A DNA stretch of 64,000 nt, taken from the NCBI GenBank assembly GCA_023659865.1, contig JAGXON010000001.1:45968-109967 (forward strand), read 5' to 3'. The position numbers were made by a program, and so were the translations under genes. This DNA comes from Candidatus Diapherotrites archaeon LH_S9. Its GTDB lineage: Archaea > B1Sed10-29 > WALL01 > JAGXON01. The notes beneath the pieces are model-generated. The model was not told the DNA's origin and did not search any database. It was given only the letters and a program-made list of their open reading frames with translations. Shown one piece after another: positions 21,026-62,950 of the stretch (position 1 is its first letter; the number at the start of each line of letters is the position of its first letter).

Positions 21026-21067
21026 AGAAAAACCATTTTAAAGAAGGTAGTATATAAAGTTAAGTGA

Positions 21068-24932: not shown

Positions 24933-25424
24933 ATGAAAATAGCAATACCCTCAACAGGAAAATCGATAGACAGCACGATAAGTAACATCTTTGGAAGATG
25001 CCCAGTATACATAATAGCCGAGATAAAAGAAGATCCAGAAACAGGAAAAAAAGAGATAGGAAAAGCAGAAGCCATAGAAAACCCTGCTGTCGGACAAAGA
25101 GGAGGAGCAGGAATAATGGCATCCCAAACGCTCGGCAACGAAGACGTGGACATAGTAATAGCCCCAAGAATAGGGCCAAGAGCATTCAACGTACTCCAAA
25201 AAATAGGCATAGAGATATACCAAGCCTCCGGAAACACCGTGAAACAAAACCTGGACAACTTCCTTGAAAACAAACTAAACAAGATAAACTCTCCCGGCCA
25301 GATGGGCATGGGCCCAAAACCAGGAGCTGGAAGAGGCGCAGGCAGAGGCCAGGGCGCTGGACAAGGAAGAGGACAAGGCGGTGGAGCCGGACAAGGAAAA
25401 GGTAGAGGACAAGGAAGAAAATGA
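24933..25424 (+). CDS. NifX/NafY-like (Nitro_FeMo-Co family, PF02579) protein with a C-terminal Gly/Arg/Gln-rich tail
   Basis: MKIAIPSTGKSIDSTISNIFGRCPVYIIAEI matches the dinitrogenase FeMo-cofactor-binding fold. The tail is GAGRGAGRGQGAGQGRGQGGGAGQGKGRGQGRK. Confidence 0.6.
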   Translation: MKIAIPSTGKSIDSTISNIFGRCPVYIIAEIKEDPETGKKEIGKAEAIENPAVGQRGGAGIMASQTLGNEDVDIVIAPRIGPRAFNVLQKIGIEIYQASGNTVKQNLDNFLENKLNKINSPGQMGMGPKPGAGRGAGRGQGAGQGRGQGGGAGQGKGRGQGRK

Positions 25425-26668
25425 GCGATAACCTAAAGAAAGGAGAGGACGCAGCAGGAAAAGTGAGCATAGTTACTTTTCTTCTAGCTGCAGGGAAAGG
25501 AATCGCTGGAGTGATGACTGGAAGCATAGCTTTGCTCACAGACGCTCTTCACTCCACTGTCGACTTAGTCGTGGCGGTTGCTTCCTGGCTTAGTCTAAAG
25601 CTTTCTCAAAGAGAAGCCGATGAACAGTTCCAGTACGGGTACTACAAAGCAGAGAACCTGGCAGCGTTCGTAATCTCTTTTTTCATCCTCTACGCAGCTT
25701 TCAACTTTGCAATAGAAGGTATAAAAAGGCTCTCGGTTGTAGAACCAATAAAACTGCCTTTCCTGGCAATGGGAGCTACGCTAGTATCAGCAATCGTTTC
25801 CGGATACCTAGTGAAATACTTAAGGGAAAAAGGAGAGGAAACAGGATCTGCATCGCTTTTGGCGAACGCAAAAGAAACTCTTGCAGACGTAATGTCTTCA
25901 TTAGTTGTCTTCGTCGCCATAGTGTGCACTTACCTAGAGATACCTTACGTTGAAGGAGTAGTCACAATAGGAATATCGTTATTTATATTCAAAGAAGGTT
26001 TCGAAACCATTAAAGACTCTTCTTTTGCTTTAATGGACGTCAGCCCAAGCAAAAAACTAGAAAAAGAAGTTGCAGAAGCAGCTAAAAAAGTGAACGGAGT
26101 CAAAGAAGTCAATAACCTGAAACTAAGAAAATCCGGTCCATTCATCCTGGGCGACCTGGACGTTCAGATAAGTAAGTCAGCCGACGTGGAAAGAGCTCAC
26201 ACAGTAGCAGACGAGATAGAGGAAAAAGCAAAAAGAAACGTGAAAGAACTTGAATCAATAGCCGTGCAAGTCGAGCCATTCAAACCAAAGGAAAGAACAG
26301 TTGCAATACCTGTAAAAGAAGATAAAGGAATGAAATCAGAGGTGAGCAATCACCTGGGAAGATGCGAACACATCGTTTTCCTGAACATCACTCCAGAAGA
26401 AAAAACAATAGAAAAAATCATGAAGAACGAGTACAAACAAAAGAAAGTTAGAGCTGGATTATCGCTGTCAAGAGAGTTATGCGAGCAAAAAACAGATGCA
26501 GTAGTAGTGCAAAGAATCGGAGAGATAAGCTTCCACACGCTAAGAGACTGTTTCACCGACATATACAAAACCGAGGGAAAAACAGTGGAAGAAGTATCAA
26601 AAAAAGTAAGGAAAAACCAGCTAAAGCTCTTGAAAGAACCTACAAAAAGATCAGGAGCCAAAAAATGA
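25421..26668 (+). CDS. Cation diffusion facilitator (CDF) metal efflux transporter fused to a C-terminal NifX-like domain
   Basis: Six TM segments with the HSTVDLV motif and a cytoplasmic CDF domain. The C-terminal ~110 aa contain IAIPVKEDKGMKSEVSNHLGRCEHIVFLNI, a Nitro_FeMo-Co pattern. An ATGA overlap links it to the upstream gene. Confidence 0.6.
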   Translation: MSDNLKKGEDAAGKVSIVTFLLAAGKGIAGVMTGSIALLTDALHSTVDLVVAVASWLSLKLSQREADEQFQYGYYKAENLAAFVISFFILYAAFNFAIEGIKRLSVVEPIKLPFLAMGATLVSAIVSGYLVKYLREKGEETGSASLLANAKETLADVMSSLVVFVAIVCTYLEIPYVEGVVTIGISLFIFKEGFETIKDSSFALMDVSPSKKLEKEVAEAAKKVNGVKEVNNLKLRKSGPFILGDLDVQISKSADVERAHTVADEIEEKAKRNVKELESIAVQVEPFKPKERTVAIPVKEDKGMKSEVSNHLGRCEHIVFLNITPEEKTIEKIMKNEYKQKKVRAGLSLSRELCEQKTDAVVVQRIGEISFHTLRDCFTDIYKTEGKTVEEVSKKVRKNQLKLLKEPTKRSGAKK

Positions 26669-27030
26669 AAGTAGCCATACCCACAGACTCAGGAAAAGTC
26701 GCTCCTCACTTCGGAAGAGCCCCAGAATACACTATCGCCATCATCGAAGAAAAAGAAGTCAGCAAAAAACAAAAAATAGATAATCCTGGCCACAAACCAG
26801 GTTATCTGCCGAAATTCTTCAACGAAAAAGGCGTAGACGTCATGCTGGTTAAAGGGATAGGAAGAAGAGCAGTTTCCTTGTTCAACCAGTTCGACATCGA
26901 TATTGTGACAGGAGCTCAAGGCAAGATAGATGAAGTGCTCGAAAAATTCGTTGAAGAAGAACTAGATGAAAAAAGCAATCCATGCAAACCAGGTAAAGGA
27001 AAAGACTACGGAATAGAAAAGGAGGATTAA
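26665..27030 (+). CDS. NifX/NafY-like (Nitro_FeMo-Co family) protein
   Basis: MKVAIPTDSGKVAPHFGRAPEYTIAIIEE is present. I placed the start at 26665, coupled to the CDF stop, rather than the longer track ORF. Confidence 0.6.
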   Translation: MKVAIPTDSGKVAPHFGRAPEYTIAIIEEKEVSKKQKIDNPGHKPGYLPKFFNEKGVDVMLVKGIGRRAVSLFNQFDIDIVTGAQGKIDEVLEKFVEEELDEKSNPCKPGKGKDYGIEKED

Positions 27031-27031
27031 A

Positions 27032-27775
27032 TTGACCAAACTAATGATGATCCTGGCAGCAAGTCTTCTTTCAGCCGTTCTCTGCAGCCTAGGCGTCCTA
27101 GTCATCTGGAGATTCAGAGAATTCGGCGAAAAATCAATGAATTACTTCATGTACTTTGCTTCAGGAGTACTAGTATCAGCTGCATTCATGATAGCTGCTC
27201 CAAAAGCATTCAGCATGAACGAATACGGTCCCATGTTCATGTTGCTCGGTTTCTTATCCATCTTCCTTCTGGACAGATTCATAAACCTTTACGTTTGCCA
27301 CGGTCACACAAAAAAATGTACAAGAGGATTCAGAATAAGCGTAGTAGCGGCAATAGGAATAGCGCTTCATTCATTCGTTGACGGAATAATATACTCAACA
27401 ACATTCACCGTATCCTCCTTCCTTGGTGTGATGACCACTCTAGGACTGATATTCCACGAATTTCCTGAAGGGATAATAACATTCATACTATTCCTTAAAG
27501 GAGGGTTCAGTGAAAAAAAATCCTTGATTTACTCAATACTGATAGCAGCATTAACCACCCCCCTAGGAGCAATAATTAGTTACCCATTCATAAGCACGCT
27601 GAGAGGACCTAAACTAGGAGCAATGGTAGGCCTAACAGCTGGAGTGCTCGCATTCGTAGGAGCATCACACCTGCTGCCGGAAGCGGAAAGAAAAAGCAAG
27701 AAGTACGGAATAATAGCTTTCCTGCTCGGAATAGCAGTAGCATCAGTTCTGGTTGTGGTAAAAGGAGGAGTATGA
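27032..27775 (+). CDS. ZIP-family metal (Zn/Fe) transporter
   Basis: The HEFPEG motif, His-containing TM helices and a length of ~247 aa are consistent with the ZIP family. Confidence 0.65.
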   Translation: MTKLMMILAASLLSAVLCSLGVLVIWRFREFGEKSMNYFMYFASGVLVSAAFMIAAPKAFSMNEYGPMFMLLGFLSIFLLDRFINLYVCHGHTKKCTRGFRISVVAAIGIALHSFVDGIIYSTTFTVSSFLGVMTTLGLIFHEFPEGIITFILFLKGGFSEKKSLIYSILIAALTTPLGAIISYPFISTLRGPKLGAMVGLTAGVLAFVGASHLLPEAERKSKKYGIIAFLLGIAVASVLVVVKGGV

Positions 27776-34221: not shown

Positions 34222-34325
34222 TGGGTCCGCCCGGAGTTGAACCGGGGATCTTCTGCACGTCAAGCAGACGTCTTAACTACCCTTCCCGCAAAGGAACGCG
34301 GAAAACCGGGCTAGACCACGGACCC
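34222..34325 (-). tRNA. tRNA-Val (anticodon GAC) with an approximately 29-nt insertion (putative intron) in the D-loop
   Basis: Minus-strand read: acceptor GGGTCCG/CGGACCC, D-stem GTCT/AGAC, anticodon arm TCTGC-TTGACGT-GCAGA, T-arm CCCGG-TTCAACT-CCGGG, discriminator A73. Total length is 104 nt. Confidence 0.55.
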
Positions 34326-34373
34326 AGAATCCATATACAGTTTTTTGCTAGCTTTTTTCTAAAAAAAGCTGAG

Positions 34374-34465
34374 TGGACCTGAGGGGAGTTGAACCCCTGA
34401 CCTCGTCCACTTTGTCGAATTCTTCCGTCGCCAAGGACGCGCTCTTCCAACTGAGCTACAGGCCC
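34374..34465 (-). tRNA. tRNA-Ala (anticodon GGC) with a canonical-position intron of about 19 nt and a G3:U70 pair
   Basis: Minus-strand read: GGGCCTG-TA-GCTC-AGTTGGAA-GAGC-G-CGTCC-TTGGCG[intron]T-GGACG-AGGTC-AGGGG-TTCAACT-CCCCT-CAGGTCC-A. The G3:U70 pair is the alanine identity element. Confidence 0.65.
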
Positions 34466-43043: not shown

Positions 43044-43838
43044 ATGAAGCTAGCACCAAAACTAATCTCAATATTTCTAGCGATCCAGTTAGCCGGGATC
43101 TACCTAGGTTCAAAACTCATTCAAGTACCTGAACTAGAGCCAGAAACAAGCGCTGCAGCAGGACCCCTCATATTCATCTACCTTCTCGTGGTCACAGCAA
43201 TAGTTCTACTGATAATAAAATACTTCTCAGGATTCATGAAAGGCTTCGAATTAATAGCCGTTTTCTTCGGATCAGAAATCTTCTTCGAAACACTCTTCAT
43301 GGGCTTCATCAAACAAAGCCAGGCATTCATGATAGCGCTCGTGCTCGCAGCCGCACTCACCGGAATAAGGCACAAGAAAAGAAACCTATGGACTCAAAAC
43401 ACAGCAATAACACTATCAGCAATAGGAATAGGATCACAACTAGGAGCATCACTAGGAATATGGCCAATACTAATACTCATATCGCTGTTAGCCGTTTATG
43501 ACGTTGTAGCAGTTTTCAAAACAAAACACATGGTGACAATGGCTAAAGAAATAATCAAGCAAAAACTAGCGTTCACGCTCGCCATCCCCACACAAGACAG
43601 AGTGTTCCAGATAGGTGGCGGAGACCTGATAATGCCGATAATTCTCGAAGTGAGCATACTGCGATACGGAGGCATAGTCCCCGCAATAGCTGCAATGATA
43701 GGAGGACTTATTGGCGTGACCGGTCTAGTAATCTATCTGAACAAAAAACCAGGCAGGCCGATGCCTGCGCTTCCGCCGATAGTGCTTGGATTGCTTACTG
43801 GTTTTGCTTTATACTTAGGAACTCAATTAATAGGGTGA
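43044..43838 (+). CDS. Presenilin/signal-peptide-peptidase-family intramembrane aspartyl protease homolog
   Basis: The YD motif (LLAVYDVVAVF), GxGD (IGGGDLIMP) and PAL (MPALPP) lie in a multi-TM protein. Confidence 0.7.
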   Translation: MKLAPKLISIFLAIQLAGIYLGSKLIQVPELEPETSAAAGPLIFIYLLVVTAIVLLIIKYFSGFMKGFELIAVFFGSEIFFETLFMGFIKQSQAFMIALVLAAALTGIRHKKRNLWTQNTAITLSAIGIGSQLGASLGIWPILILISLLAVYDVVAVFKTKHMVTMAKEIIKQKLAFTLAIPTQDRVFQIGGGDLIMPIILEVSILRYGGIVPAIAAMIGGLIGVTGLVIYLNKKPGRPMPALPPIVLGLLTGFALYLGTQLIG

Positions 43839-45019: not shown

Positions 45020-45322
45020 ATGGCAAAAAAAGACGAAGAAAAAAAGCAAAGAACCAGGATGCCAAGAGGAAAACAAGTAATCGGTAGAGTAGACGACCTT
45101 CTAGGCGCAAAAAGAATGAGAGTAGAATGCTCGGACGGAAGAACACGAATGTGCCGCATCCCAGGAAAAGCACAGAGAAGAATGTGGATAAAAGAAGGAA
45201 ACTACGTTATAGTAGAACCGTGGAAAATACAGGGAGACGAAAAAGGCGACATCACCTGGAAATACAGAAAACATCAAGTACAAGAACTAAGAAGAAAAGG
45301 AATGCTCGACGAAATAGAATGA
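45020..45322 (+). CDS. eif1a: Translation initiation factor 1A (aIF1A)
   Basis: The S1-like OB domain is present (GKQVIGRVDDLLGAKRMRVECSDGRTRMCRIPGK). Confidence 0.85.
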   Translation: MAKKDEEKKQRTRMPRGKQVIGRVDDLLGAKRMRVECSDGRTRMCRIPGKAQRRMWIKEGNYVIVEPWKIQGDEKGDITWKYRKHQVQELRRKGMLDEIE

Positions 45323-45981
45323 AAACAGGAGCACTATTCTCAGGCGGAAAAGACAGCGCTTACGCAATATACTGGGCTCTAAATCAAGCCTGGAACGTAA
45401 ACTGCCTGATAAACATAAAAACAGAAAACCCTCATTCTTTCATGTTCCATCACCCGAACCAAAAGCTGATCGAACTACAGGCAAAAAAAGCAGGAATCCC
45501 GTTAATCCAGCTTGAGACACCAGGAGAAAAAGAAGAAGAGCTCGAAGCACTGGAAAAAGCCGTTAAAAAAGCAAAAAAAGAATTTGACCCAGACGCAGTA
45601 ATCAGCGGAGCAGTCGCGTCCAGCTACCAGAAAAAAAGAGTGGACAACATCTGCCACAAACAAGAAATAAAGTCCTTCGCCCCATTATGGACTAAAAAAC
45701 AAAACACGCTAATGCAATACATCCTAAAAGCTGACTTCGACGTGAGAATCAGCGCAGTAGCAGCAGAAGGCCTGACAAAAGACTGGCTCGGCAAAAAAAT
45801 CACTGAAGAAACAGTCCAAGAACTAAAAGAAATGAAGGGAATGAACATCGCTGGCGAAGGAGGAGAGTGGGAGAGCACCGTACTAAACGCTCCTTTCTTC
45901 AAAGAAAAAATAGTCGTGAAAAAAGCAAGAAAAGAATGGAAAAAAAACAGAGGAAACTGGATAATAGAGGAAGCTAGATAG
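45320..45981 (+). CDS. Diphthine-ammonia ligase-like ATP pyrophosphatase (Dph6/MJ0570 family)
   Basis: LFSGGKDSAY PP-loop is present. I placed the start at MKTGALF. The track ORF extends upstream in frame through aIF1A. Confidence 0.6.
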
Positions 45982-48355
45982 AAACGTCTACACTTGTCTC
46001 TCCTGCCTCTAAATCGCCTTCTCCCTCAGAAAAAACAATTTCTTCAGCATTCAAAGTGTCCTTAAAGTCCTTCTCCCAGTTCTGCAAGTCACTGTAAACT
46101 GCTAGTTCCTCGATCTCCTTGTTCAACGGAAGACCATTATCAGATTTAAACTTCCTAACAGCTGAAATCACGTCCAAAGCTTCCTCAAAACCTTTAGGCG
46201 CTTCAACATCCAGTTTTTCCGGCCAAGATGCTTTGTGAACTGATCGAAGTCCAGTGAACTTCTTCAAGTACTTTTCGTGCACTTCTTCAGTGATGTGCGG
46301 GACGAAGGGCGCTAGCATAAAAGTAACTCTTTTAAGCACGTTCAGCAACGTTTGCTGAGCGGCTTCTTTCCTCCAGTCTTCAGTATTGTAAAGCCTGTAC
46401 TTCACCATCTCCAGGTAGTAATCGCAGAACTCGTGCCAGAAAAAATCACGCAAAAGCTTCATAGCCCTGCAAAACTCGTAATCATCCAAAAAACCAGTGG
46501 CTTGTTCCACGACTTCGTCAGTCCTGTAAAGAATCCATTCATCCGCAGGCCTTAACTTGCTCACTTCTTTTTCTTCTTCAGGCAAGTGCATGTCCACAAA
46601 GTAAGAGGCATTCCAGTACTTCTCCTGGAATTTTTCAGCGTATTTCAGCTCCTTCCAGGAAAAAGGATAGTCTTTTCCAAGAGAAGCGTTCAGCGCCCAC
46701 TGTCGAAGCGCATCAGTTCCGTGTTCATCCAACGCTTCTTCAGGAGGTATGACATTACCAAAACTCTTGCTCATCTTCCTGCCGTCAGGCCCAGCGACCA
46801 TGCCGTTGACCACAACTTCCTCGAACGGAATATCGTCCGTTAAGAGCAAGGACCTGAAAATCGTGTAGAAAGCCCAGGTTCGAATTATTTCATAACCCTG
46901 AGGCCTCATTGAGTTTGGGTAAGCTTTCTTGAAGTAATTCTTGTTTTCTTTCCATCTAGATACCTTTAAAGGAGTTATGGAACTGTCTACCCAGCAATCG
47001 CAAACGTCTTGAGCTCCAACTATTTTTCCTCCGCACTCGCAAGTTTCTTCTGGAGCTTCATCTATTCTTGGATCCACTGGCAAATCATCTTTGTCTGGCT
47101 CGATTATTTTACCGCAGTCTTCACAGAACCAGAAAGGTATTGGCGTTCCGTAAGTTCGTTGACGGGAAATTATCCAATCCCAGTCAAGCGAGTCACACCA
47201 ATTGAAAAGTTTTTGCTTCATGTAACCAGGATACCAGTCCATTTCATCGGCCGCTTCCTTGACTGCATCCGTCTTGTCCTGTACTTTAATGAACCACTGT
47301 TTTTTCGGTAAAAGCTCTATTGGAGCTTTGCAGGCAGATCTTTCCACGTGACAGAGCACGTTATGCTGATAATCCTCTTTTTTCTTCAGGAAACCTTTTT
47401 CTTTGAACCATTTAGCCATTTTTTTTCTGGCTTCCTTGGCTTTCATACCTGCAAATTCTCCTGCTAGGTCAGTGAGTCTTCCTTCTTCGTCAACTATTTT
47501 GAATATAGGTAAATCGTATTTTTGCTGCCACTTGATGTCCATTTCGTCTCCAAAAGTGCACAAGTAGACGACTCCAGTACCGAAATCCGTGTCCACGTCC
47601 TCGTCAGCAATTATTGGTACTTCCCTGTCAACCATCGGGACCAATACTTTCTTTCCTTCCAAGTGTGCGTGTTCCTCGTCCTCCGGATGGATTAGGACTG
47701 CGGCGCATGCAGGAGTCATTTCAGGCCTCGTGGTCGCTATGGTTATGGTTTCATCTGAGTCCTTGATCGGGAACTCCAAGTACCATAATCCTCCTGCCAT
47801 TGAAACGTGATCGACTTCCGCTTGAGCTAACGCTGTATTGCATTCAGGGCACCAGAGCACAGGGTGCTTATCTCGATATATCCTGTCTATATCATTGAAT
47901 TCAAGCAACGAAAGCTGAACAAGCCGCTTGTATTCATCTGAACGGGTTTCGTAGTATTCGTTCCAATCTGCAGAGTATCCTAGAGCCTTGTACTGCTCGT
48001 TCATTTTTTCTATGGCTTCGTCCGTCCATTCATCGCATTTTTTCACGAATTCTTTCGTGTCTTCTTTGGAGACATCAAATTCTTTTTCAACCTTCATCTC
48101 CGTTGGAAGACCGTGACAGTCGTAGCCCACCGGTAATAGCACGCTGTATCCCTGCATTCTCTTGTATCTGGCTGCAAAATCAATCCAAACATGGTTCAGT
48201 ACGTGACCCATGTGCAGTGTTCCGCTTGTGAAGCTGGGAGGGTTGTCTATCGAGTAAACTGGTTTGTTTTCATCCACGTTGAAACTATAGATGTCTTCTT
48301 CCTGCCATTCCTTTTGCCATTTTTCTTCTATTTCCTTTGGATTGTACTTGGGCAT
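45974..48355 (-). CDS. valS: Class I aminoacyl-tRNA synthetase, most likely valyl-tRNA synthetase (short form)
   Basis: The HMGH motif sits in PPSFTSGTLHMGHVLNH, and KMSKS in RKMSKSFGNVI. A CxxC Zn motif is in the editing region. At 793 aa it is shorter than LeuRS or IleRS. Confidence 0.6.
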   Translation of the reverse strand: MPKYNPKEIEEKWQKEWQEEDIYSFNVDENKPVYSIDNPPSFTSGTLHMGHVLNHVWIDFAARYKRMQGYSVLLPVGYDCHGLPTEMKVEKEFDVSKEDTKEFVKKCDEWTDEAIEKMNEQYKALGYSADWNEYYETRSDEYKRLVQLSLLEFNDIDRIYRDKHPVLWCPECNTALAQAEVDHVSMAGGLWYLEFPIKDSDETITIATTRPEMTPACAAVLIHPEDEEHAHLEGKKVLVPMVDREVPIIADEDVDTDFGTGVVYLCTFGDEMDIKWQQKYDLPIFKIVDEEGRLTDLAGEFAGMKAKEARKKMAKWFKEKGFLKKKEDYQHNVLCHVERSACKAPIELLPKKQWFIKVQDKTDAVKEAADEMDWYPGYMKQKLFNWCDSLDWDWIISRQRTYGTPIPFWFCEDCGKIIEPDKDDLPVDPRIDEAPEETCECGGKIVGAQDVCDCWVDSSITPLKVSRWKENKNYFKKAYPNSMRPQGYEIIRTWAFYTIFRSLLLTDDIPFEEVVVNGMVAGPDGRKMSKSFGNVIPPEEALDEHGTDALRQWALNASLGKDYPFSWKELKYAEKFQEKYWNASYFVDMHLPEEEKEVSKLRPADEWILYRTDEVVEQATGFLDDYEFCRAMKLLRDFFWHEFCDYYLEMVKYRLYNTEDWRKEAAQQTLLNVLKRVTFMLAPFVPHITEEVHEKYLKKFTGLRSVHKASWPEKLDVEAPKGFEEALDVISAVRKFKSDNGLPLNKEIEELAVYSDLQNWEKDFKDTLNAEEIVFSEGEGDLEAGETSVDVSI

Positions 48356-48426: not shown

Positions 48427-49251
48427 TTAATCTTTGTTGTGCTTTTTGCCCACGTGGATTTTCAGGCCTTTCTCGGAGTCGAACTCTTTTCCGCATTCAC
48501 TGCAGACAAAAACGTCTTTCTTTTTTCTGGATAAGAGCAGTGCTGCTAAACCAATTACGATTATTGCACTGATGACCCCGATAAAGAGGAGTGAAGTGTC
48601 GTCTTCTTGTTCTTCAGTCTCTGGCTGTGTTTTGTTTTCTGCCTTGTCTTCTTCGCACTTTCCTTTGTAAGCTATCTTAACGTCATCGCATTCAGCAAAG
48701 CATTTGTTGGAATAAGTTTCTCCGTTCACTCCGCAAACTGGATCCCAGTATTCTGCGCAGAAGCATCCTTTTTCCGTCTCGTTCTCTGTTGGAGCACTAA
48801 CGTTCTCTTCCGGAGGCATCTCAGGAGCTACTTCTTCTTCCATCACTTCGATAACTTCTGTTTCCACGTTGAAAGGTGGTTCAGCAGGGTTGGTCGCGTA
48901 GTACATCAGCCAATCGTAGTACTGATCCATCTTTGGCTTCAGGTCGTAGTAGTCAGAGTTCGATAAGCAAGTGTTCACCTTAGCCGTTGAAGGGTTGTAG
49001 TAGTACAGAGCCGTCGGTTTCTCGGAGTTGTCCGCTATATACCTTTCTCCTTGCTCGTTCATCGGCAGATACTTTTTTTCCGCTTTCCTTGCTGCCTTTA
49101 AGTAATTGTAAAGGCAGTCATTCCATTGTTCGGCTTCCTTATAACAGTCTCCTGCATCCACATACTTGTCTTGTTCCACGAGATCTTGGCAGGAAGCTGC
49201 TATAACTCCTGAAATCAGGAGCATCGCTATCAGCAAAGTTTTCTTCAACAT
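48427..49251 (-). CDS. Type I membrane protein with an extracellular Kazal-type serine-protease-inhibitor domain and a cytoplasmic C2H2 zinc finger
   Basis: There is a signal peptide. The Kazal signature CAEYWDPVCGVNGETYSNKCFAEC...C follows the C-x7-C-x6-Y-x3-C-x3-C pattern. A TM helix is followed by CSECGKEFDSEKGLKIHVGKKH, a C-x2-C-x12-H-x4-H finger. Confidence 0.6.
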   Translation of the reverse strand: MLKKTLLIAMLLISGVIAASCQDLVEQDKYVDAGDCYKEAEQWNDCLYNYLKAARKAEKKYLPMNEQGERYIADNSEKPTALYYYNPSTAKVNTCLSNSDYYDLKPKMDQYYDWLMYYATNPAEPPFNVETEVIEVMEEEVAPEMPPEENVSAPTENETEKGCFCAEYWDPVCGVNGETYSNKCFAECDDVKIAYKGKCEEDKAENKTQPETEEQEDDTSLLFIGVISAIIVIGLAALLLSRKKKDVFVCSECGKEFDSEKGLKIHVGKKHNKD

Positions 49252-49260
49252 TTAATTCAC

Positions 49261-50403
49261 CTAAAGGTATTCTTTTAAATCACGGTTCGTGGTTTCCCAG
49301 GAAAACTCTGGCAGGTTGCGGCCGAAGTGACCGTAGCAAGCTGTCTTCCTGTATATTGGTCTTAAGAGATCTAATCGTTTTATTATTTTGCCTGGTTTTA
49401 GCACGAATTCTTTTTGAACTATTTCTTTTATTTCATGATGCGTCAGGTCGCTGGTTCCGAAGGTATCTATCAGAACTCCTACTGGCTCAGGAACACCTAG
49501 GGCGTACGATAACTGGACTTCGCATTCGTCTGCCAGTCCTGAAGCCACTATGTTTTTGGCTATGTACCTGGCCATGTAGGTTCCTGATCTGTCAACTTTT
49601 GACGGGTCTTTTCCGGAGAAGCATCCTCCTCCGTGAGATCCTTTTCCTCCGTAAGTATCGACAATGATTTTTCTGCCTGTCAAGCCTGAATCGGCTGGTG
49701 GACCCCCTTTCACGAATCTTCCGCTCTCGTTAACGAAAATCTTGGTGTCTTCATCCAAGTAACTGCCGAGAACTGGTTTTACAACGTCTTCTTCAACGTC
49801 TTTTTTGAGCGTTTCTCTTTCAACGTCTGGCTCTGTCTGTGCTGCGATCACTACTGCTTCAGCTCTTTTTGGTTCCCCGTCATCGTACTCTACAGTAACC
49901 TGTGATTTTCCGTCAGGCCTGAGGTACGGGAGGACTTCTTTTTTTCTGGCTTCAGCGAGATTCATTGACAGTTCGTGAGCTAGAGTTATAGGTAAAGGCA
50001 TCAGTTCCGGTGCTTCGTCGATTGCGTAGCCGAACATTATCCCTTGGTCCCCTGCTCCTTGTTCCCCTATATCTTCCGAGTTAACTCCTTGAGCTATGTC
50101 AGAACTCTGCTGGTGTATTGAGTTCGAGATGTTGCAAGAGTCGTATGTAAAACCGTATTCAGGTTCAGTATACCCTATTTCTTTCAAGGTTTCTCTAGCG
50201 ACTTCATTGTAATCGATGGTTGCTTCAGAAGTTACTTCTCCTGCCATGAAAACCATGCCATTCGTCACAAGCGTTTCAACAGCTACTCGGGATCCTGGGT
50301 CTCTATCGATGAGTTCGTCTAAAACCGCGTCAGATATCTGGTCAGCTATCTTGTCCGGGTGTCCTTCAGTCACTGATTCCGAAGTGTAATAATATTTTTC
50401 CAT
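49261..50403 (-). CDS. metK: S-adenosylmethionine synthetase of the bacterial/eukaryotic MetK type
   Basis: SESVTEGHPDKIADQISDAVLD, GAGDQGIMFGYA and DTYGG...GGGAFSGKD-like motifs are diagnostic of MetK rather than the archaeal-type MAT. Confidence 0.8.
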   Translation of the reverse strand: MEKYYYTSESVTEGHPDKIADQISDAVLDELIDRDPGSRVAVETLVTNGMVFMAGEVTSEATIDYNEVARETLKEIGYTEPEYGFTYDSCNISNSIHQQSSDIAQGVNSEDIGEQGAGDQGIMFGYAIDEAPELMPLPITLAHELSMNLAEARKKEVLPYLRPDGKSQVTVEYDDGEPKRAEAVVIAAQTEPDVERETLKKDVEEDVVKPVLGSYLDEDTKIFVNESGRFVKGGPPADSGLTGRKIIVDTYGGKGSHGGGCFSGKDPSKVDRSGTYMARYIAKNIVASGLADECEVQLSYALGVPEPVGVLIDTFGTSDLTHHEIKEIVQKEFVLKPGKIIKRLDLLRPIYRKTACYGHFGRNLPEFSWETTNRDLKEYL

Positions 50404-52446: not shown

Positions 52447-53339
52447 TGGAAGACGATTTATTTGCTTCAGGCCACCGAGCGTGCGCTGGATGCGGATCCG
52501 CTCTGGCTTTACGGCACTTGACAAAAGCCGCTGGCAAGAACAGTGTTTTCACTATAGCAACGGGCTGCATGGAAGTAGTTTCAACTCAGTACCCAACAAC
52601 TGCTTGGGGAGTCCCATTAATTCACACTACTTTCGAGAACGCGGCTTCAGTAGCTGCTGGAATCAAAGAAGCACTTAACCAGCAAGGAAAAGAAGATACC
52701 AATGTTATAGCTCTTGCTGGTGATGGCGGGATGGTGGACATTGGTTTCAGAGCGCTCAGTGGTTCTTTGGAAAGAGGCCATGACGTTCTTTACGTTTGCT
52801 ACGATAACGGTGCTTACATGAACACTGGAGTCCAGAAATCTGGAGCAACTCCTTTCGGAGCTTCTACGACCACTACTCCAGCTGGAAAACAATCTCACGG
52901 TAAAAGCGAGTGGCAGAAGAACGTTCCTTTCATTGCACTGATGCATGGCGTCAATTACGTTGCTACTGCATCTATAGCAGATCTTGATGACTTCAAGAAA
53001 AAAGTTAAGAAAGCTCTTGAAGTCGAGGGACCGAAATATATTCACGTGCATTGCCCTTGTCCGATTGGATGGGGTTTTGACACTAGTGAAACAATAGATC
53101 AGGGTAGGAAAGCCGTTGAGTCGGGAGCCTGGGTACTTTACGAGATAGAGGACGGAAATTTCTCGATTAGCTACAAGCCTAGTGAGAGGATTCCTGTAAA
53201 AGATTATCTTTCAGGCCAGAAAAGGTTCAAGCACTTGGATGAAGACGATGTTGAAACGATTCAAGATCATGTGGACAGGAACTGGGAAGAGCTTAAGAAA
53301 CTAGAGGGTTTGGACTTGGATTTACTGAAACTATTGTAA
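52446..53339 (+). CDS. porB: Pyruvate:ferredoxin oxidoreductase beta subunit (TPP-binding)
   Basis: CAGCG and the GDGG TPP motif (LAGDGGMVDIG) are present. Confidence 0.8.
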   Translation: MEDDLFASGHRACAGCGSALALRHLTKAAGKNSVFTIATGCMEVVSTQYPTTAWGVPLIHTTFENAASVAAGIKEALNQQGKEDTNVIALAGDGGMVDIGFRALSGSLERGHDVLYVCYDNGAYMNTGVQKSGATPFGASTTTTPAGKQSHGKSEWQKNVPFIALMHGVNYVATASIADLDDFKKKVKKALEVEGPKYIHVHCPCPIGWGFDTSETIDQGRKAVESGAWVLYEIEDGNFSISYKPSERIPVKDYLSGQKRFKHLDEDDVETIQDHVDRNWEELKKLEGLDLDLLKLL

Positions 53340-55106
53340 TTGCTCGAATTGTTTTTGCAGGTCAACTATTTTTGACATTAAGTTCCGTGCTTTTTCTAAA
53401 TCCTGTCCTTCAATTGCAGATTCAAGCGAAACTATTCCAAGGTCTTCTTTGCTGAGTATCATGTTCAGTTTCGAGACTTCTTCATCTTTTTCCTTAAGTT
53501 CCGAGATTTTTTCTTTGTTGGTCTCAAGCATCTTGTCAGCGTAAGCTGTTATTTCTTTTTGGCCTCTACTCCAAACTAGATCAGGTTTTGATGCTGATTT
53601 TACTTGCTTCTGGAATTCGTTGAACTTGCTTATAAGATCTTTTCTTCTTACTTTGTCCGGGACTTCTATTTTTTCTTCTCTAGAAACATCTTCTACGCTT
53701 GGCTTTTCTATCATTTCTTCTTCTTTCTTCATCTCTTCCTTCAGAACGCCCCCAGTAGCTATCTCTCCTTCTTTTTCCTTTTTCCCTTCAGCTTCCTTCC
53801 CCTTTTTTCCTTCAGCCTCCTTTTCCTCTTTTCCTTCAGCTTCTTTTTTCTTAGTTTCTTTCTTTCCCTCTTCTTTTTCGGCTTTTTTCTTTAGTTCTTC
53901 AGTGCCTTCAGGCGCCTCTTCCTCAGTTTCTTCTGGCTCTTCTCCTTTTTCTTCCGGTTCCTCTGACTTTTCTTTTTTTTCTTCTGGTTTTTTCTTAACT
54001 TTCTTTTTCTTCTTTGGGGTTGTTTCTCCTGCAATCTTCTCAAGTTCTTCTCTCACCTGCTTGAGGCCTTTTTCAACGCGTTCTTCTGGAACTTCTTCTA
54101 GTTCGTCCAGGTCTTCGAGTTCTTTCTCGAATTTTTCTTTTGAGACCATGGTTTGCACGCCTTCTCTGACAAGATCTTTTAGCTCTCTGTCGAATTTTTT
54201 CATTTGCTCTTGTTCTTTCCTAAGTTTTTCTTCTCTTTCCTCAATCTCTTCGAGTTCTTCTGTGACTTCTGAGAGGGATTCAGCTAATGTGGATACTTTT
54301 TGCTCTGTTTTCTTTGATTTTATGTCTTTTACTATTTTTTTTGCTCTGAAAAGATTCTTTTTGTTTTTCTTGGTTTTTTCCTCCCATCCTTCAAGTTCTT
54401 TATTCATTCTTTTCAGGTCTTGCCTGATTTTGCTTAACTTGGTTGTTTTTTTCCCTACGGAAGCGTAAAGTTCGTCAAAGTTCTCTTCATGCTTTTCTAG
54501 TGTGCTTCTAAGTCCTTTGAGTTTTTTCAAACTATCTGAAAGGTTTCTAGCTTCTTTTTGAAGTTTTTTCATCCGTGGTTTCATTTTGGATTCTTCCTTC
54601 TCGGAAGAAAGCTCTTTCATTCTGTTCGATAAATTCCTTATTCTCTGAGAATTTTCTTTTGTCTCGTCTTCCCAGCCCTTTATCTCTTTCTCTATTCTTT
54701 CTAGAGTTCTTTGTATCCTTAATTCAGGAGAAGTCTGTCCTGAAGGCTTTTGAGGTTCTGGTTCTTCAACTTCTTTTTCAGACTTTTCTTTTTCTAGTGA
54801 GAATTCTTCTTCCTCTATAAGTTCTGCGGGTTCTTCCAGCTCTTCCTCGGTTTCAGAAGTTTTTTTTGGCTTCGGAGTTTTTTCTTCTAGTTTTTGAGGT
54901 TTCTCCATATGTTCTGGCTCTTTTTCTTGCTTCTCAACTAAGGCGAAGATCTGGTCTATCTTTTTCTTGGATTTTCCCATTTCTCTCAAAGTATTTTTTA
55001 TATCCCCTTCAGTGAATCCTTCGTCTCTAAGTGATTTTATTTCCTCTAATAGCTCTTTCGTTTCCGCTCCTGTTTCCTCACGTCCTTCAGCTTTCTCTTC
55101 TTCCAT
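53331..55106 (-). CDS. Large (591 aa), highly charged Lys/Glu-rich coiled-coil protein with tandem KEAEGK-type repeats
   Basis: The whole ORF is hydrophilic with heptad-like periodicity. A repeat block reads KKETKKKEAEGKEEKEAEGKKGKEAEGKKEKEGE. No catalytic motif was found. Confidence 0.45.
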   Translation of the reverse strand: MEEEKAEGREETGAETKELLEEIKSLRDEGFTEGDIKNTLREMGKSKKKIDQIFALVEKQEKEPEHMEKPQKLEEKTPKPKKTSETEEELEEPAELIEEEEFSLEKEKSEKEVEEPEPQKPSGQTSPELRIQRTLERIEKEIKGWEDETKENSQRIRNLSNRMKELSSEKEESKMKPRMKKLQKEARNLSDSLKKLKGLRSTLEKHEENFDELYASVGKKTTKLSKIRQDLKRMNKELEGWEEKTKKNKKNLFRAKKIVKDIKSKKTEQKVSTLAESLSEVTEELEEIEEREEKLRKEQEQMKKFDRELKDLVREGVQTMVSKEKFEKELEDLDELEEVPEERVEKGLKQVREELEKIAGETTPKKKKKVKKKPEEKKEKSEEPEEKGEEPEETEEEAPEGTEELKKKAEKEEGKKETKKKEAEGKEEKEAEGKKGKEAEGKKEKEGEIATGGVLKEEMKKEEEMIEKPSVEDVSREEKIEVPDKVRRKDLISKFNEFQKQVKSASKPDLVWSRGQKEITAYADKMLETNKEKISELKEKDEEVSKLNMILSKEDLGIVSLESAIEGQDLEKARNLMSKIVDLQKQFEQLQ

Positions 55107-55989: not shown

Positions 55990-57330
55990 ATGATGAGAAA
56001 AAAAGTTTTTTTACTGGCTTCATTGCTGGTGATCTCTTCAGCAGTGTACGCGGCCGTTTCTTTCAATAAAGCTGGGAACATGGTAGCTTCGGAATTCCCT
56101 GAATTAGGTTCCCCGAACAGCGTGCACTCGTACACTATAAAAGTAAGCAACGGAAGCTACTTCGTCTACGAATTTGAGGAAGAAGGAGTTTGGGTGGCTG
56201 TAGATCAGGAAAAAGGTGACATGGCTTCTGGAGACGTTATCAAACCTGTTTTTTCTGTTTATTATTCTATCAAGAACATTAGGGCTCAGAAAGAAAGCGA
56301 AGGCTATCCTGGAAAAAGCTTTGTAACCATATCCAGGATGCATGGAGACGTTAAATCACAGGTAAGTTACATAAAAACCTGGCAGCAGGACCTACCGGAA
56401 GAACTTTCTGAAGAAACAGACTCGCTCTTAAAAGCAGCTGAAGAACTGGACAGTGCCTTCTCAAAACTTTCGAACGAGAAAGGAGACCTAGAGCAATCAG
56501 AAGAAGCCTTGCTGGAAAGCAGTTCCTCAACTCAGGACGTGGAGAACTGGAAGAGAGACTTTTCGGACGTGCTAACGGCAAAAGCCAACATGATAGAAAA
56601 AGCTTACGCTTACGAGAACGAGAGCCAAGAATTTATAGGATCTGCTTCAGACTTCAAATCAAAGAACGACACTGAACTAAACCAAAAAAAGGCTGTGAAC
56701 AGTTTTCTTTCAGGCATAAGCATATCCCGGATACCTGGATCTCTGCCTGGCATGGAATCAACCTTGAACAAGTGGGAAAACTGGTTCCAAACCACTTTAT
56801 CCGAAGAAAAAACAAAGGAAGAAGCAGAAAGGAGAAAAAGCAATTACGAAGAAATTTTATCAGAAAAAACAGTTGAAGACAGGAAAGAAGAGGCCACGAA
56901 CCTGATAGAACAAACATCACCAAAAGTAGAAGCGCTGAAGAACAAGCTAGAAGTTTGCTCGTCGGAACTCGATATCCCAACTCAGAAGAACTTCGGAGAA
57001 ATGAAAGACAAAATGGAGAAAGCTCAAAACTCTTATCAGGAAGCTAAAACCCTTTATCAAGAATCAGAGTACGATGCAGCAAAAGAAGGATACTTGAACG
57101 CTTTCAGTTACGCTGAAGACGCGGAAGAACAAGCTGGAAAGCTCGAGGGAACCAATTGTCCTGAAGAAGAGTCTGAACCTCAAGGTATCGGCGAGATACT
57201 GGCCAATTTCGTGTCCTCGATTTGGGGACTAGCTTTCTTTGTTTTGGTGATAGCATTAATAGTAATCTGGGTAATAAGTCATAGAGGAGGTGAAGAATAT
57301 GAAGAAGACTACGATTATTATGATTACTAG
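55990..57330 (+). CDS. Secreted protein with a helical ectodomain, a C-terminal TM anchor and a Tyr/acidic tail (EEYEEDYDYYDY)
   Basis: There is a signal peptide. A hydrophobic segment near the C-terminus is followed by the acidic Tyr-rich tail. Confidence 0.4.
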   Translation: MMRKKVFLLASLLVISSAVYAAVSFNKAGNMVASEFPELGSPNSVHSYTIKVSNGSYFVYEFEEEGVWVAVDQEKGDMASGDVIKPVFSVYYSIKNIRAQKESEGYPGKSFVTISRMHGDVKSQVSYIKTWQQDLPEELSEETDSLLKAAEELDSAFSKLSNEKGDLEQSEEALLESSSSTQDVENWKRDFSDVLTAKANMIEKAYAYENESQEFIGSASDFKSKNDTELNQKKAVNSFLSGISISRIPGSLPGMESTLNKWENWFQTTLSEEKTKEEAERRKSNYEEILSEKTVEDRKEEATNLIEQTSPKVEALKNKLEVCSSELDIPTQKNFGEMKDKMEKAQNSYQEAKTLYQESEYDAAKEGYLNAFSYAEDAEEQAGKLEGTNCPEEESEPQGIGEILANFVSSIWGLAFFVLVIALIVIWVISHRGGEEYEEDYDYYDY

Positions 57331-61469: not shown

Positions 61470-62950
61470 AACTACCACCACCAAAATCAAAGATTTTGGG
61501 GGTGGCTTCCTGATTCAACCACTTGACTTGCAGGAACGTGTTGCAGTTCTTGTAGAGGTTTAGTGTCCACAGGCGTAGATTCGGGTCGTCCCGACCCTAG
61601 TTTATCTATTCCTTTTTCTAAGATGTTTAGTGAGGCGTTGTAGTCACGGTCGATGTCTTGGCCGTGTTTGTGTTCTTGCGAAGTGCCTTGTGGGTTCACT
61701 TTGATTACTGTCTTACCAGCTCTTTCAGCCTTGTAGGATAGCAGCTCTGTGAATTTGTTCCACGAGGCATCAGTTATCCCTCTCGCAAGATAAGGGTTTT
61801 TAGTCATGTTCTTGATGTTTAGGTCTTCAACCGCAATCAAATCGTAGTTATCGACATAGTAGTGTGAAAGCTTGTGCAAAAAATCATTGCGTTGATTTTC
61901 AATTCGCTCGTGCTGTCGAGCTACGCGAACACGCTGTTTATCGCTGTTGTTCGAACCGTGCTCCATCCTTGAAAGCTTTTTCTGTCTGCGTTCAAGTTTC
62001 TTTGCCGACTTCTCTAAGTACTCTGGATTCTCAAACTGTCGACCATCACTGTCAGAACAATAGTATTTTAGCCCGACGTCGATACCGACAGCTTTCTCTA
62101 TCGGCTGTTCAGCAACTTCGTTCTCCTGTTCCACCATGATAGAAGCATACCATTTGCCAGACCGATAGTGCTTGATAACTACTTGTTTTATATCACCCTT
62201 GACAGGTCGGTGCATCCTCATCGGTAAATTGCCGACTTTAGAAATGTGTAGTTTATCTAAGCGGTTTCCTGTTTCCAGTATCTTGAAGCCGGATTGGTTG
62301 TAATGGATTGTTTTGAAACTTTGGCTCGACTTGAAACGCAGTCTTCCTACCTTGTTTCCTTTTTTCTTTGATTGAGACAGTGCATGAAGATTATGGAACA
62401 AACGGTGAACCTCATACTGCAGAGCCTTAGAGTACACTTGTTTTAGTTCAGGGTGTTCTTGTTTTAATGACGGTAGCTTATTCTGTAACTCATACTTATT
62501 TATCTCGTCCTGTTCATTCAACCATCCAAGAAGAGTGTTGTAAACATACCTACAGATCTCGAGGTTGTGGGATAGGGTTTCTTCTTGTTCTTTCGATGGA
62601 TACAGACGGAATTTGTAGGTTTTGTGCATTATTTTTCTCTCCCTGACTTTCTACGTATTTTTTTCAGTTGGTCAAGTGTTGCTTGTCCTGTTGTAGTAAG
62701 ACAAATCCTTCTGAAATACTCGTGTCCTCTCTTTTTTAGTTCGTTTGTTATATCTTTGTTGGTAAATACGTTTCTACGATGCTTTTTTATACATGACTGG
62801 ATGATAGGTCAATGTGAATACAGTGTGGGAAGGACTTATCGAAATCGTGGTAACTTTTTGGTTTTGATGGCATATGATACACATACCCTATTACCAACTG
62901 CTATATAAACATTGTGCCAATTCATCCTCCACCAAAATCTTTGATTTCGG
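61470..62950 (-). mobile_element. IS200/IS605-family, tnpB-only (IS1341-like) insertion sequence of about 1.48 kb
   Basis: A single tnpB ORF is flanked by similar subterminal hairpins that share CCACCAAAATC. One is at 61476-61506 (CCACCACCAAAATC-AAA-GATTTTGGGGGTGG) and one at 62921-62940 (CCAAAATC-TTT-GATTTCGG). Confidence 0.55.
61487..62629 (-). CDS. tnpB: TnpB-like (OrfB_IS605) RuvC-fold nuclease lacking the usual C-terminal zinc finger
   Basis: RuvC-I is GIDVGLKYY, RuvC-II is IAVEDLNIKNM, and RuvC-III is DRDYNASLNIL. Only about 7 aa (HKHGQDI) separate TSQE from DRD, whereas canonical TnpB has a roughly 30-aa CxxC...CxxC insert there. Confidence 0.7.
   Translation of the reverse strand: MHKTYKFRLYPSKEQEETLSHNLEICRYVYNTLLGWLNEQDEINKYELQNKLPSLKQEHPELKQVYSKALQYEVHRLFHNLHALSQSKKKGNKVGRLRFKSSQSFKTIHYNQSGFKILETGNRLDKLHISKVGNLPMRMHRPVKGDIKQVVIKHYRSGKWYASIMVEQENEVAEQPIEKAVGIDVGLKYYCSDSDGRQFENPEYLEKSAKKLERRQKKLSRMEHGSNNSDKQRVRVARQHERIENQRNDFLHKLSHYYVDNYDLIAVEDLNIKNMTKNPYLARGITDASWNKFTELLSYKAERAGKTVIKVNPQGTSQEHKHGQDIDRDYNASLNILEKGIDKLGSGRPESTPVDTKPLQELQHVPASQVVESGSHPQNL

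Follow-up and report, generated by a model that had tools for sequence, protein, structure and literature searches.

An archaeal membrane protein predicted to carry an outer Kazal domain and an inner C2H2-type zinc finger on a single transmembrane helix

Described Kazal and membrane-proximal zinc proteins

The Kazal inhibitors of MEROPS family I1, such as leech-derived tryptase inhibitor (LDTI), silk protease inhibitor 2 (SPI2), rhodniin and infestin, are built on an extracytoplasmic scaffold of six cysteines with a short C-x-C N-terminal segment. The same scaffold was observed in a predicted membrane protein, here called protein X, which is encoded in a stretch of 64,000 nucleotides (the window) of Candidatus Diapherotrites archaeon LH_S9 (assembly GCA_023659865.1, contig JAGXON010000001.1, positions 45,968 to 109,967 of the forward strand). 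Its open reading frame (ORF) lies at 48427..49251 on the minus strand, has an ATG start and a stop codon at 48427-48429, and encodes 274 residues; all features of protein X given below are on this strand. The order of the modules is signal peptide, N-terminal domain (N-domain) of about 115 residues, acidic linker, Kazal domain, stalk, one transmembrane (TM) helix and a C2H2 tail of 33 residues. An earlier reading made from the letters alone (the sequence-only reading) had proposed a signal peptide, an extracytoplasmic Kazal domain, a single TM helix and a cytoplasmic C2H2 finger in this order, and the ORF, hydropathy, charge and motifs bear it out. The N-domain (residues 21-136), which defines the wider syntenic family of the protein, had been overlooked in it.

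The LDTI-type inhibitors and protein X have the core PVCG-x-(D/N)G-x-TY-x-N-x-C in common and can be aligned over 39 residues. The former are soluble secreted animal proteins with a basic or neutral P1 residue (Lys8 in LDTI), whereas protein X has Glu at P1 and is predicted to be a membrane-anchored archaeal protein. Closest to its Kazal domain are the secreted Kazal proteins of prokaryotes, which are 57-68% identical to it, share the motif C-x-C-x-E-x-W-D-P-V-C-G and have signal peptides; they differ from protein X in having no C2H2 tail at any of 29 loci, and many of them are multi-Kazal or very large proteins. In tomoregulin (TMEFF1/2), RECK and a loop of OATP, Kazal-like modules are displayed near the outer face of the membrane as in protein X, and RECK and OATP were among the PDB profile matches of its Kazal domain. 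These proteins are however eukaryotic and mostly non-inhibitory, their tail is without a zinc finger and the homology is confined to the Kazal module.

On the other side of the membrane, a zinc module placed right after the TM helix of an N-out, C-in protein and serving as a docking site is known from the glycoprotein Gn of hantaviruses and nairoviruses and from the CD4/CD8-Lck zinc clasp, the tail partners being the nucleocapsid, RNA or a kinase. Unlike protein X these are viral or eukaryotic and have a dual CCHC beta-beta-alpha module or an intermolecular clasp, not one C2H2 finger, and a sequence relationship to protein X is not expected. In function, the Gn fingers, tomoregulin and RECK are the nearest analogues of protein X. 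The zf-HC2 anti-sigma factors and ToxR/CadC also have one TM helix between an extracytoplasmic domain and a cytoplasmic zinc- or DNA-binding domain, but in these the cytoplasmic domain is N-terminal and of another fold (H-x3-C-x2-C or winged helix, respectively). To our knowledge archaea have no sigma factors. No winged helix-turn-helix or zf-HC2 match to protein X was obtained in Pfam or NCBIfam at E<=10, and the protein was rejected as a ToxR/CadC-like regulator or zf-HC2 anti-sigma factor on the reversed orientation and on these missing matches.

No description of a Kazal-TM-C2H2 architecture was found in the literature on archaeal or prokaryotic Kazal proteins, archaeal membrane C2H2 proteins and DUF929 fingers, and the combination is limited to three sequences, namely protein X and its orthologues P0001 and P0002. 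The sequence-only reading had not recognised the architecture as a described one; this holds for the combination, but a C2H2 finger adjacent to the membrane is not unique to it, as three metagenomic loci (L050, L051 and L138) described below have one.

Modules, topology and selection

The Kazal domain of protein X (residues 161-200; 48652..48771) is of the non-classical type, as read from Pfam, PDB profile matches and conservation, and its signature, CFCAEYWDPVCGVNGETYSNKCFAEC...C, is located at residues 163-199. Over residues 159-199 the score was 28.0 bits for Kazal_2 (PF07648) against a gathering threshold of 22.8, and 24.6 bits for Kazal_1 (PF00050) against 21, while the domain of P0002 scored 30 bits with both the models. 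The Kazal identity proposed from the letters alone thus passes the Pfam thresholds. A profile of the three orthologues compared with PDB gave LDTI as the best match (E=3.3e-8) over the whole 39-residue module, followed by SPI2, rhodniin, an elastase inhibitor and infestin. The cysteines C163, C165, C173, C184, C188 and C199 are in register with C4, C6, C14, C25, C29 and C40 of LDTI, and all six are unchanged in the three orthologues. By the LDTI alignment, the disulfides would be C163-C188 (I-V), C165-C184 (II-IV) and C173-C199 (III-VI). Alignment with Lys8 of LDTI also gives Glu167 as P1, in the loop C165-A-E167-Y-W-D-P-V-C173, and the three orthologues share the reactive loop CAEYWDPVCG without a change. 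Profile, cysteine framework and predicted location all assign the module to the Kazal family.

The distribution of related domains was analysed by scanning, with Kazal patterns, a single genome of each GTDB species; the scan was keyed on the Kazal domain alone, and relatives of the tail were beyond its reach. It yielded 29 loci with cores 46-70% identical, in Myxococcota (often multi-Kazal), the Candidate Phyla Radiation (CPR), Neomarinimicrobiota, Iainarchaeota, Woesearchaeota and Nitrosopumilus. Nearly all the relatives with a readable full ORF have a hydrophobic N-terminus, and the C2H2 motif was absent from all the readable full ORFs of the 29 loci. The scaffold is near-identical throughout these prokaryotic Kazal domains (C-x-C-P-x-x-W/Y-x-P-V-C-G-x-D-G-x-T-Y-x-N-x-C-x-A-x-C) and P1 is hypervariable, being E, D, K, R, L, M, A, Q, G or V. 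Hypervariability of the reactive site (P1) on a constant scaffold is a signature of the canonical Kazal inhibitors. The earlier statement that Kazal domains are rare in archaea is roughly true, although near-identical cores occur in the three archaeal groups named above. A fold survey of 2026 places Kazal inhibitors among the DPANN-specific fold groups within archaea (PMC13607799).

The topology was read from four indicators, namely hydropathy, charge distribution, cysteine parity and placement of N-x-S/T sequons. Two hydrophobic segments are present in protein X, residues 1-21 and 221-241, with Kyte-Doolittle values up to 2.0 and 3.0. The first holds the predicted signal peptide (residues 1-20, MLKKTLLIAMLLISGVIAAS; 49192..49251), which has a Lys-Lys n-region, a window score of 1.6-2.0 and a cleavage site predicted just before Cys21; the conserved domain of all the family members likewise begins about 14-70 residues in, behind a hydrophobic N-terminus. 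The second is the single TM helix (residues 221-241, LLFIGVISAIIVIGLAALLLS; 48529..48591; Kyte-Doolittle up to 2.97), whose sequence varies among the orthologues with the hydrophobicity kept. The Kazal domain is preceded by an acidic, fast-evolving linker (residues 137-160; 48772..48843) having the sequons N150-V-S and N157-E-T, and residues 131-160 contain 11 acidic and no basic residues. It is followed by an acidic stalk (residues 201-220; 48592..48651) having the sequon N206-K-T, which puts it about 20 residues above the membrane; the stalk has nine acidic residues, no Arg and two Lys, with no Lys in the last 13 residues before the helix.

The inside flank of the helix is RKKK (residues 242-245) and five of the first 15 inside residues are basic. 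The cytoplasmic tail as a whole (residues 242-274; 48430..48528) has eight K/R and six D/E, giving a net charge of about +2. The cysteines of the ectodomain come to an even number of ten (four in the N-domain and six in the Kazal domain), apart from those of the tail, which are putative zinc ligands. All three sequons (N150, N157 and N206) are confined to the linkers on either side of the Kazal domain, and P0002 has six sequons in the corresponding linkers. Because of the hydropathy, the positive-inside charge, the even cysteine count and the linker-only sequons, the Kazal domain is assigned to the outside and the finger to the inside, with or without cleavage of the N-terminal segment, and protein X is predicted to be a type I (N-out, C-in) single-pass surface glycoprotein. 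The signal peptide, the C-terminal TM helix, the positive-inside rule, the cysteine parity and the sequons all agree with an extracytoplasmic, oxidising site for the Kazal domain.

The effect of selection on the modules was analysed with the orthologues. A search of 5.8 billion clusters with protein X returned two relatives only. The first, P0001 from GCA_023659035.1, is 95% identical and keeps the gene order S-adenosylmethionine (SAM) synthetase (MetK), X and valyl-tRNA synthetase (ValRS). The second, P0002, comes from a Logan contig of 1.1 kb and has 325 residues, with 48% identity by BLASTP and 60% in the MAFFT alignment; it retains all the modules, its Kazal domain being 75% identical and 27 of the last 31 residues being the same. 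The proportion of nonsynonymous differences (pN) to P0002, calculated using the Nei-Gojobori method, was 0.18 for the N-domain, 0.11 for the Kazal domain (nonsynonymous to synonymous rate ratio, dN/dS, ~0.05), 0.11 for the tail, where the synonymous proportion (pS) was 0.76, and 0.47-0.48 for the linker, stalk and TM helix. The values of pS were saturated (0.67-0.83) and the overall dN/dS was ~0.15. Since pN is 0.11-0.18 in the N-domain, Kazal domain and finger as against 0.47-0.48 in the remaining parts under saturated pS, these are three selected modules joined by freely evolving spacers. A scan of the genome collection with patterns from the N-terminal half revealed no relative. The strict DNA pattern of the tail, VCSECG.EFDSE.GLKIH, had no match in the metagenomes of the Joint Genome Institute (JGI), a slightly relaxed form of it had none in viral contigs, and a scan of the viral contigs with a Kazal-to-tail pattern also gave no match.

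The C2H2 finger (residues 248-271; 48439-48510) is formed around F248, C250, C253, F257, L263, H266 and H271. Its sequence, F248-V-C-SE-C-GKE-F-DSEKG-L-KI-H-VGKK-H271, follows the full pattern (F/Y)-x-C-x2-4-C-x3-F-x5-L-x2-H-x3-5-H, and the ligands and hydrophobic core are invariant in P0001 and P0002. The scores were 20.4 bits for zf-C2H2_4 against 27 and 20.0 bits for zf-C2H2_6 against 25, and P0002 scores alike; single fingers commonly miss the whole-protein C2H2 cut-offs of Pfam. Despite these sub-threshold values the finger is accepted as real because its pN is as low as that of the Kazal domain, and as C2H2-type by pattern and conservation rather than by profile threshold. The canonical finger of the sequence-only reading therefore stands as regards the pattern and the purifying selection, but not as regards the Pfam gathering score. 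The tail showed no secondary structure in a full-length AlphaFold2 (AF2) model made from three sequences, with a predicted local distance difference test (pLDDT) value of 35. The helix positions -1, 3 and 6 are occupied by Ser, Gly and Ile, residues ill suited to contacting bases, and the finger begins about 8 residues past the TM helix. A transcription-factor role of the finger is unlikely because it is single, lies so close to the bilayer and has these residues at the contact positions.

The relaxed DNA pattern C-x-E-C-G-x2-F-x-S-x2-G-L-x2-H matched at least 120 loci in the JGI metagenomes, many of them encoding eukaryote-like multi-finger proteins. Among the matches listed, the fingers closest to that of protein X are single and terminal, on prokaryotic and mostly archaeal-looking proteins. 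Nearly the same terminal finger, of the form CxECG(K/R)EFDSxxGLxxH, is joined there to other partners (DUF929, a thioredoxin-like domain, a coiled coil with a zinc ribbon, or a nucleotidyltransferase) and, unlike in protein X, not to a Kazal domain. In L118 (484-1845; CEECGKEFDSERGLKIH) and L053 (4825-6186; CDECGKDFKSEKGLKIH) it is C-terminal on a cytosolic nucleotidyltransferase, and the finger of L118 matches P0001 and P0002 at 16 of 17 positions and the window protein at 15 of 17. The N-termini of the neighbouring ORFs in these two loci resemble ABCE1, topoisomerase, RadB and Cdc48 by eye, which we take to indicate an archaeal context. The product of L138 (119-2074) consists of a signal peptide, a coiled-coil ectodomain of 540 residues, an Ala/Gly-rich TM helix, RRRR, an acidic linker, the C2H2 finger and a zinc ribbon. 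The arrangement is C2H2-TM-DUF929 in L050 (1966-2874) and C2H2-TM-thioredoxin-like in L051 (~959-1429), and L113 (487-1110) encodes a multi-TM protein with a C-terminal finger. The subtype CxECG(K/R)xFxSxxGLxxH was also found on an ERCC4-type nuclease-like protein. Since L050, L051, L113 and L138 too have the finger beside a TM helix, a cytoplasmic juxtamembrane C2H2 finger appears to be a recurring arrangement without a description, not special to protein X. An origin of the finger de novo from a His/Lys-rich tail was rejected, as it is nearly identical to an existing archaeal subtype.

Two other modes of anchoring were considered. A lipoprotein reading of A-A-S-C21 (A-V-S-C in P0002) is unlikely on family comparison. 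Cys21 is the first of four conserved N-domain cysteines, and because the residue before the equivalent Cys in the relatives is D, E, N, Q, T or A (ADC, PEC, ANC, EQC, GTC), it is more likely a structural disulfide cysteine after signal peptidase I cleavage than a lipidated one. A C-terminal sorting signal for sortase or archaeosortase was rejected as no LPXTG or PGF motif occurs before residue 221, and also because a strongly conserved tail of 33 residues is unexpected for a cleaved signal. The LPXTG-anchor profiles remained sub-threshold (13.9 vs 15.9 bits in NCBIfam and 10.3 vs 20 bits in Pfam), their scores being caused by the TM helix and the basic tail.

The archaeal family and its genomic setting

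The N-terminal ectodomain (residues 21-136; 48844..49191), supported by hmmsearch, alignment and AF2, has as hallmarks the cysteines 21, 36, 46 and 95, the tryptophans Trp43 and Trp114 and a PPF(D/N)(M/V) motif, which reads PPFNV in protein X. An exhaustive hmmsearch of 1.84 billion cluster representatives gave 16 proteins at E<=1e-3, and the N-domain matched 14 other representatives with E values from 1e-24 to 2e-4, beginning at residues ~14-70. The protein P0012 (1773 residues, eight partial matches) was rejected as a member, as it is a PfkB kinase whose matches come from a repetitive stretch. Five members were gained from a second, word-index search, and the family now comprises about 20 clusters (P0004-P0011 and P0013-P0022; loci L033-L038). 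Its members are of 124-435 residues and consist of a hydrophobic N-terminus, the N-domain, a stalk that is acidic or rich in Pro and Thr, a single TM helix and a cytoplasmic tail, the tails being Lys-rich and often His-rich (4-31 K/R and up to six His). The TM helix and the K/R/H-rich tail are present in 13 of the 14 representatives; the exception is P0006 (124 residues), which ends directly after the N-domain.

Some members carry other small Cys-rich inserts in the stalk, at the position of the Kazal domain, and neither a Kazal domain nor a C2H2 finger was found in any of the N-domain family members outside the clade of protein X. The family has no Pfam model; no Pfam domain was found in the five added members, one of which is annotated merely as 'hypothetical protein [archaeon]'. 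By these features protein X belongs to an unnamed family of predicted archaeal surface proteins having a signal peptide, a helical domain with four cysteines, a stalk, a TM helix and a basic tail, and the family stalk is, on the same comparison, a hot spot for different small Cys-rich inserts. A module of four cysteines, C..LYYFD....EC..KEFCGLYMY.GL.TF.T...CQ.AL, is common to P0002 (~140-185) and P0018 (~160-205), where it follows the N-domain and precedes the remainder of the stalk; protein X lacks it, and no Pfam family matches it above threshold.

The AF2 model of the N-domain from 16 sequences was all-alpha with seven helices, at a mean pLDDT of 95.8 and a predicted template modelling score (pTM) of 0.89. 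A Foldseek comparison of the N-domain model gave nothing significant, the best E value being 0.57 against PDB and 0.5 against BFVD, and a PDB sequence-profile search with this domain gave nothing below E=0.03, with weak noise of the tetratricopeptide repeat (TPR) kind.

The gene for protein X is directly downstream of the SAM synthetase gene in the window and in L002, L038 and L034/L035, and three genes away from it in L033. The order in L038 is bacterial-type MetK, X, FtsZ on the opposite strand and ValRS; L033 has this order too, except that MetK and X are separated by three additional genes and ValRS is followed by diphthamide synthase. In L034/L035 the order is deoxyhypusine synthase, archaeal-type SAM synthetase (PF01941), X, a metallo-beta-lactamase (MBL)-fold protein, two genes and ValRS, and in L036 X is followed by the MBL-fold protein and does not adjoin MetK. 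The window is 56-63% identical to these loci in ValRS and 63-72% in MetK. Because ValRS and MetK are conserved alongside X across the loci, the synteny shows X to be specific to the lineage of one archaeal clade and to be inherited vertically. Iainarchaeota metagenome-assembled genomes (MAGs) contain the best Kazal match among archaea as well as a neighbour protein of 48% identity, and an M48 peptidase in a Woesearchaeota MAG is 40% identical. With the form III RuBisCO of the window, these matches point, at moderate confidence, to an uncultivated host of DPANN-like affinity. The upstream SAM synthetase itself is of the archaeal type in L034/L035 (3757-4926) and of the bacterial/eukaryotic MetK type (PF00438) in the window, L033 and L038; it looks as though one type displaced the other in place.

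In the window, the bacterial-type MetK gene lies at 49261-50403 (minus strand) with a gap of 9 nt from its stop to the ATG of X. A Shine-Dalgarno-like GGTGA, read from the sequence at 49257..49261 on the minus strand, is located 5 nt 5' of this ATG and overlaps the TAG stop of the SAM-synthetase gene, an overlap which suggests that X is co-transcribed and translationally coupled with it. The ValRS gene (45974-48355) follows after 71 nt, and MetK, X and ValRS are all on the same strand. The surroundings are archaeal housekeeping genes, for diphthamide synthase, aIF1A, aIF2-beta, MCM, signal peptide peptidase (SPP) and a four-subunit pyruvate:ferredoxin oxidoreductase (PFOR); farther off in the window are genes for form III RuBisCO, FEN1, XPD and archaeal Nre. 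The G+C content of the window is 42%, and no rRNA was found in its 64 kb.

Further observations were made in the same stretch. The ORF for diphthamide synthase (45127-45981, plus strand) overlaps the end of the ValRS gene by 8 nt at its 3' end; it has 284 residues when called mechanically and 220 in the gene calls of L001/L002, its Pfam match begins at residue 65, and the true start is probably internal. The RuBisCO large subunit (5554-6852, plus strand) is presumably of form III, which belongs to a nucleotide-salvage pathway and is typical of DPANN and other archaea; a small subunit was not seen among the scanned ORFs, in which it was not specifically sought. A TnpB/OrfB_IS605 (Cas12f-like) gene is present at 61487-62629 (minus strand). 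In L002, the locus of the 95%-identical relative, a TnpB copy at 3321-4463 separates PFOR-gamma from MetK; the window lacks a copy at this place, a difference that points to recent IS200/605 mobility.

In the region 19179-24319, the ORFs on either side of one encoding a terminase large-subunit RNaseH-like domain (19634-21025) have no Pfam match or only DUF4352, and the region may be an integrated virus or its remnant. Adjacent zinc genes at 25421-27775 encode a cation diffusion facilitator (CDF) exporter (Cation_efflux and ZT_dimer) fused to a Nitro_FeMo-Co domain, which we take to be a dinitrogenase cofactor-binding-like domain, and a ZIP importer. Two tRNA matches were obtained at 34222-34465 (minus strand). 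The longer one, of 92-93 nt with an odd 4-nt 'anticodon' in ARAGORN, is probably an intron-containing archaeal tRNA, and the second (34222-34286) scored 29.8 bits, barely above the Rfam threshold. The ORFs without a Pfam match at E<=1e-5, of about 190-590 residues, include 53331-55106 (minus), 55990-57330 (plus), 21068-22342 (plus) and 2860-4072 (minus).

Proposed function and rival explanations

The preferred reading, to which we assign a probability of about one half, is that protein X is a surface-tethered protease inhibitor with a zinc-folded cytoplasmic docking tail, built on the backbone of the unnamed family. The Kazal domain would have been inserted in the family stalk, and the C2H2 finger placed where the relatives have Lys/His-rich tails. 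Because its best PDB relatives are real inhibitors and P1 is hypervariable among its prokaryotic relatives, the Kazal domain is proposed to inhibit serine proteases by tight binding through the standard (Laskowski) mechanism, while tethered some 20 residues from the outer face of the membrane. The P1 residue sets the specificity of such inhibitors, and the conserved acidic Glu167 suggests glutamyl endopeptidases or tolerant subtilisin-like enzymes as the targets. The helical N-domain would be outermost, above the Kazal domain on an acidic and probably glycosylated linker of ~25-30 residues, and the Kazal domain would guard the cell's own surface or a cell-cell interface against proteolysis. 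On the inside, the finger would fold around zinc and serve, with its net positive charge, as a docking knob some 8 residues beneath the membrane, and its binding to a cytoplasmic partner (a protein, nucleic acid or anionic lipid) would anchor or cluster protein X.

Several points weigh against this proposal. No S1 or S8 protease gene was found in the 64-kb window, Kazal inhibitors do not usually have an acidic P1, and protease inhibition is not a property of all Kazal-like modules, those of follistatin, agrin and the OATP loops being exceptions. The finger scored 19.8 bits with zf-C2H2 (PF00096), below the gathering value of 25.2 (E~1e-3), and its strongly conserved non-ligand residues also fit a sequence-specific nucleic-acid or signalling role. 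Both the Kazal domain and the finger are unfolded in the full-length AF2 model, and the topology is a reading by the rules of hydropathy and charge.

A possible but rather doubtful alternative is that of an adhesion or interaction protein, the N-domain and a non-inhibitory Kazal domain of which bind a host or partner cell or the S-layer, in the manner of follistatin, agrin and SPARC, while the tail merely anchors it. The atypical P1 would agree with this, as would a family defined by its N-domain and not by the Kazal domain, the relatives having other Cys-rich inserts or none at that place. The N-domain also has a weak TPR/Sel1-like similarity (E 0.36-0.69), which would fit a protein-binding module, TPR and 14-3-3 proteins are among its insignificant Foldseek matches, and the context is DPANN-like (form III RuBisCO and a small housekeeping set), where surface-contact proteins matter. 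However, the Kazal domain is nearer to proven inhibitors (LDTI, E 3e-8) than to follistatin (E 3e-3 or weaker), its CAEYWDPVCG loop does not vary over the three orthologues, and paralogous prokaryotic domains differ mostly at P1, which is the signature of inhibitors. An unlikely explanation is that of a nucleic-acid or nucleoprotein membrane tether, in which DNA or RNA would be bound, non-specifically or semi-specifically, by the basic tail with its finger and the nucleoid or a ribonucleoprotein would be attached to the envelope, in analogy to the beta-beta-alpha fingers of the Gn tails. It could draw on RKKK and GKKHNK on the two sides of the finger, on the polybasic tails of the relatives (up to 31 K/R), on the nucleic-acid contexts of the finger subtype (the nucleotidyltransferase and the ERCC4-type nuclease-like protein) and on GAGA factor, in which a single finger with basic flanks binds DNA; the poor base contacts, the short distance of the finger from the bilayer and a tail charge of just ~+2 argue the other way.

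The one-component transmembrane sensor of the sequence-only reading, whose finger would be changed or released by Kazal engagement, stalk cleavage or intramembrane proteolysis and would then regulate genes, found no support and is considered improbable. Conserved modules do lie on either side of one TM helix, an SPP gene (43044-43838) is 5 kb away, and zf-HC2 anti-sigma factors and ToxR-like regulators couple cytoplasmic to extracytoplasmic domains. Unlike helices that transmit signals, the TM helix here changes freely, as does the stalk next to it (pN ~0.47), and relatives without a finger or Kazal domain keep the same plan with plain Lys/His-rich tails. A released peptide would have about 33 residues and one finger lying ~8 residues from the membrane, whose Ser, Gly and Ile contacts are not DNA-like. 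The neighbours are housekeeping genes without a regulated-target pattern, and the SPP gene belongs to their conserved block and does not adjoin X. Correspondingly improbable is the wider proposal that the finger is the cytoplasmic output of a protease-sensing one-component device and that juxtamembrane fingers form an archaeal class of envelope-to-cytoplasm couplers; if it were true, the finger would bind DNA, RNA or a partner protein differently once the Kazal domain had captured an external serine protease or the stalk had been cleaved. That the finger, the Kazal domain or both are chance motifs, or artefacts of a non-coding or mis-framed ORF, is effectively refuted. The finger is indeed under its Pfam gathering score and the family is tiny, but the two patterns occur once each in the six-frame translation of the 64 kb, both inside the ORF of X, and in their stringent form in none of 200 DNA shuffles and 500 residue shuffles. 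For the loose C2H2 pattern, 0.3 occurrences are expected in a shuffled window and 0.012 in the long ORFs after shuffling. The protein is moreover carried by three independent assemblies, the exact sequence being present in NCBI and Logan assemblies, and with an overall dN/dS of ~0.15 the motifs are its best-conserved parts.

Protein X brings together two modules best known from eukaryotes, which are on opposite sides of one archaeal helix and are each strongly constrained by purifying selection. As a rare embellishment of a small family by two modules it is a curiosity of domain shuffling, and through its C2H2 finger it joins a small, so far undescribed group of archaeal membrane proteins that have such a finger next to the membrane. 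If the Kazal domain inhibits proteases, it would be, as far as found, the first surface-anchored archaeal Kazal inhibitor described, and such an inhibitor would hint at protease warfare or protection on the surface of tiny symbiotic archaea. The unnamed syntenic family, with a confident fold that lacks a solved match, may be a more useful lead than protein X alone.

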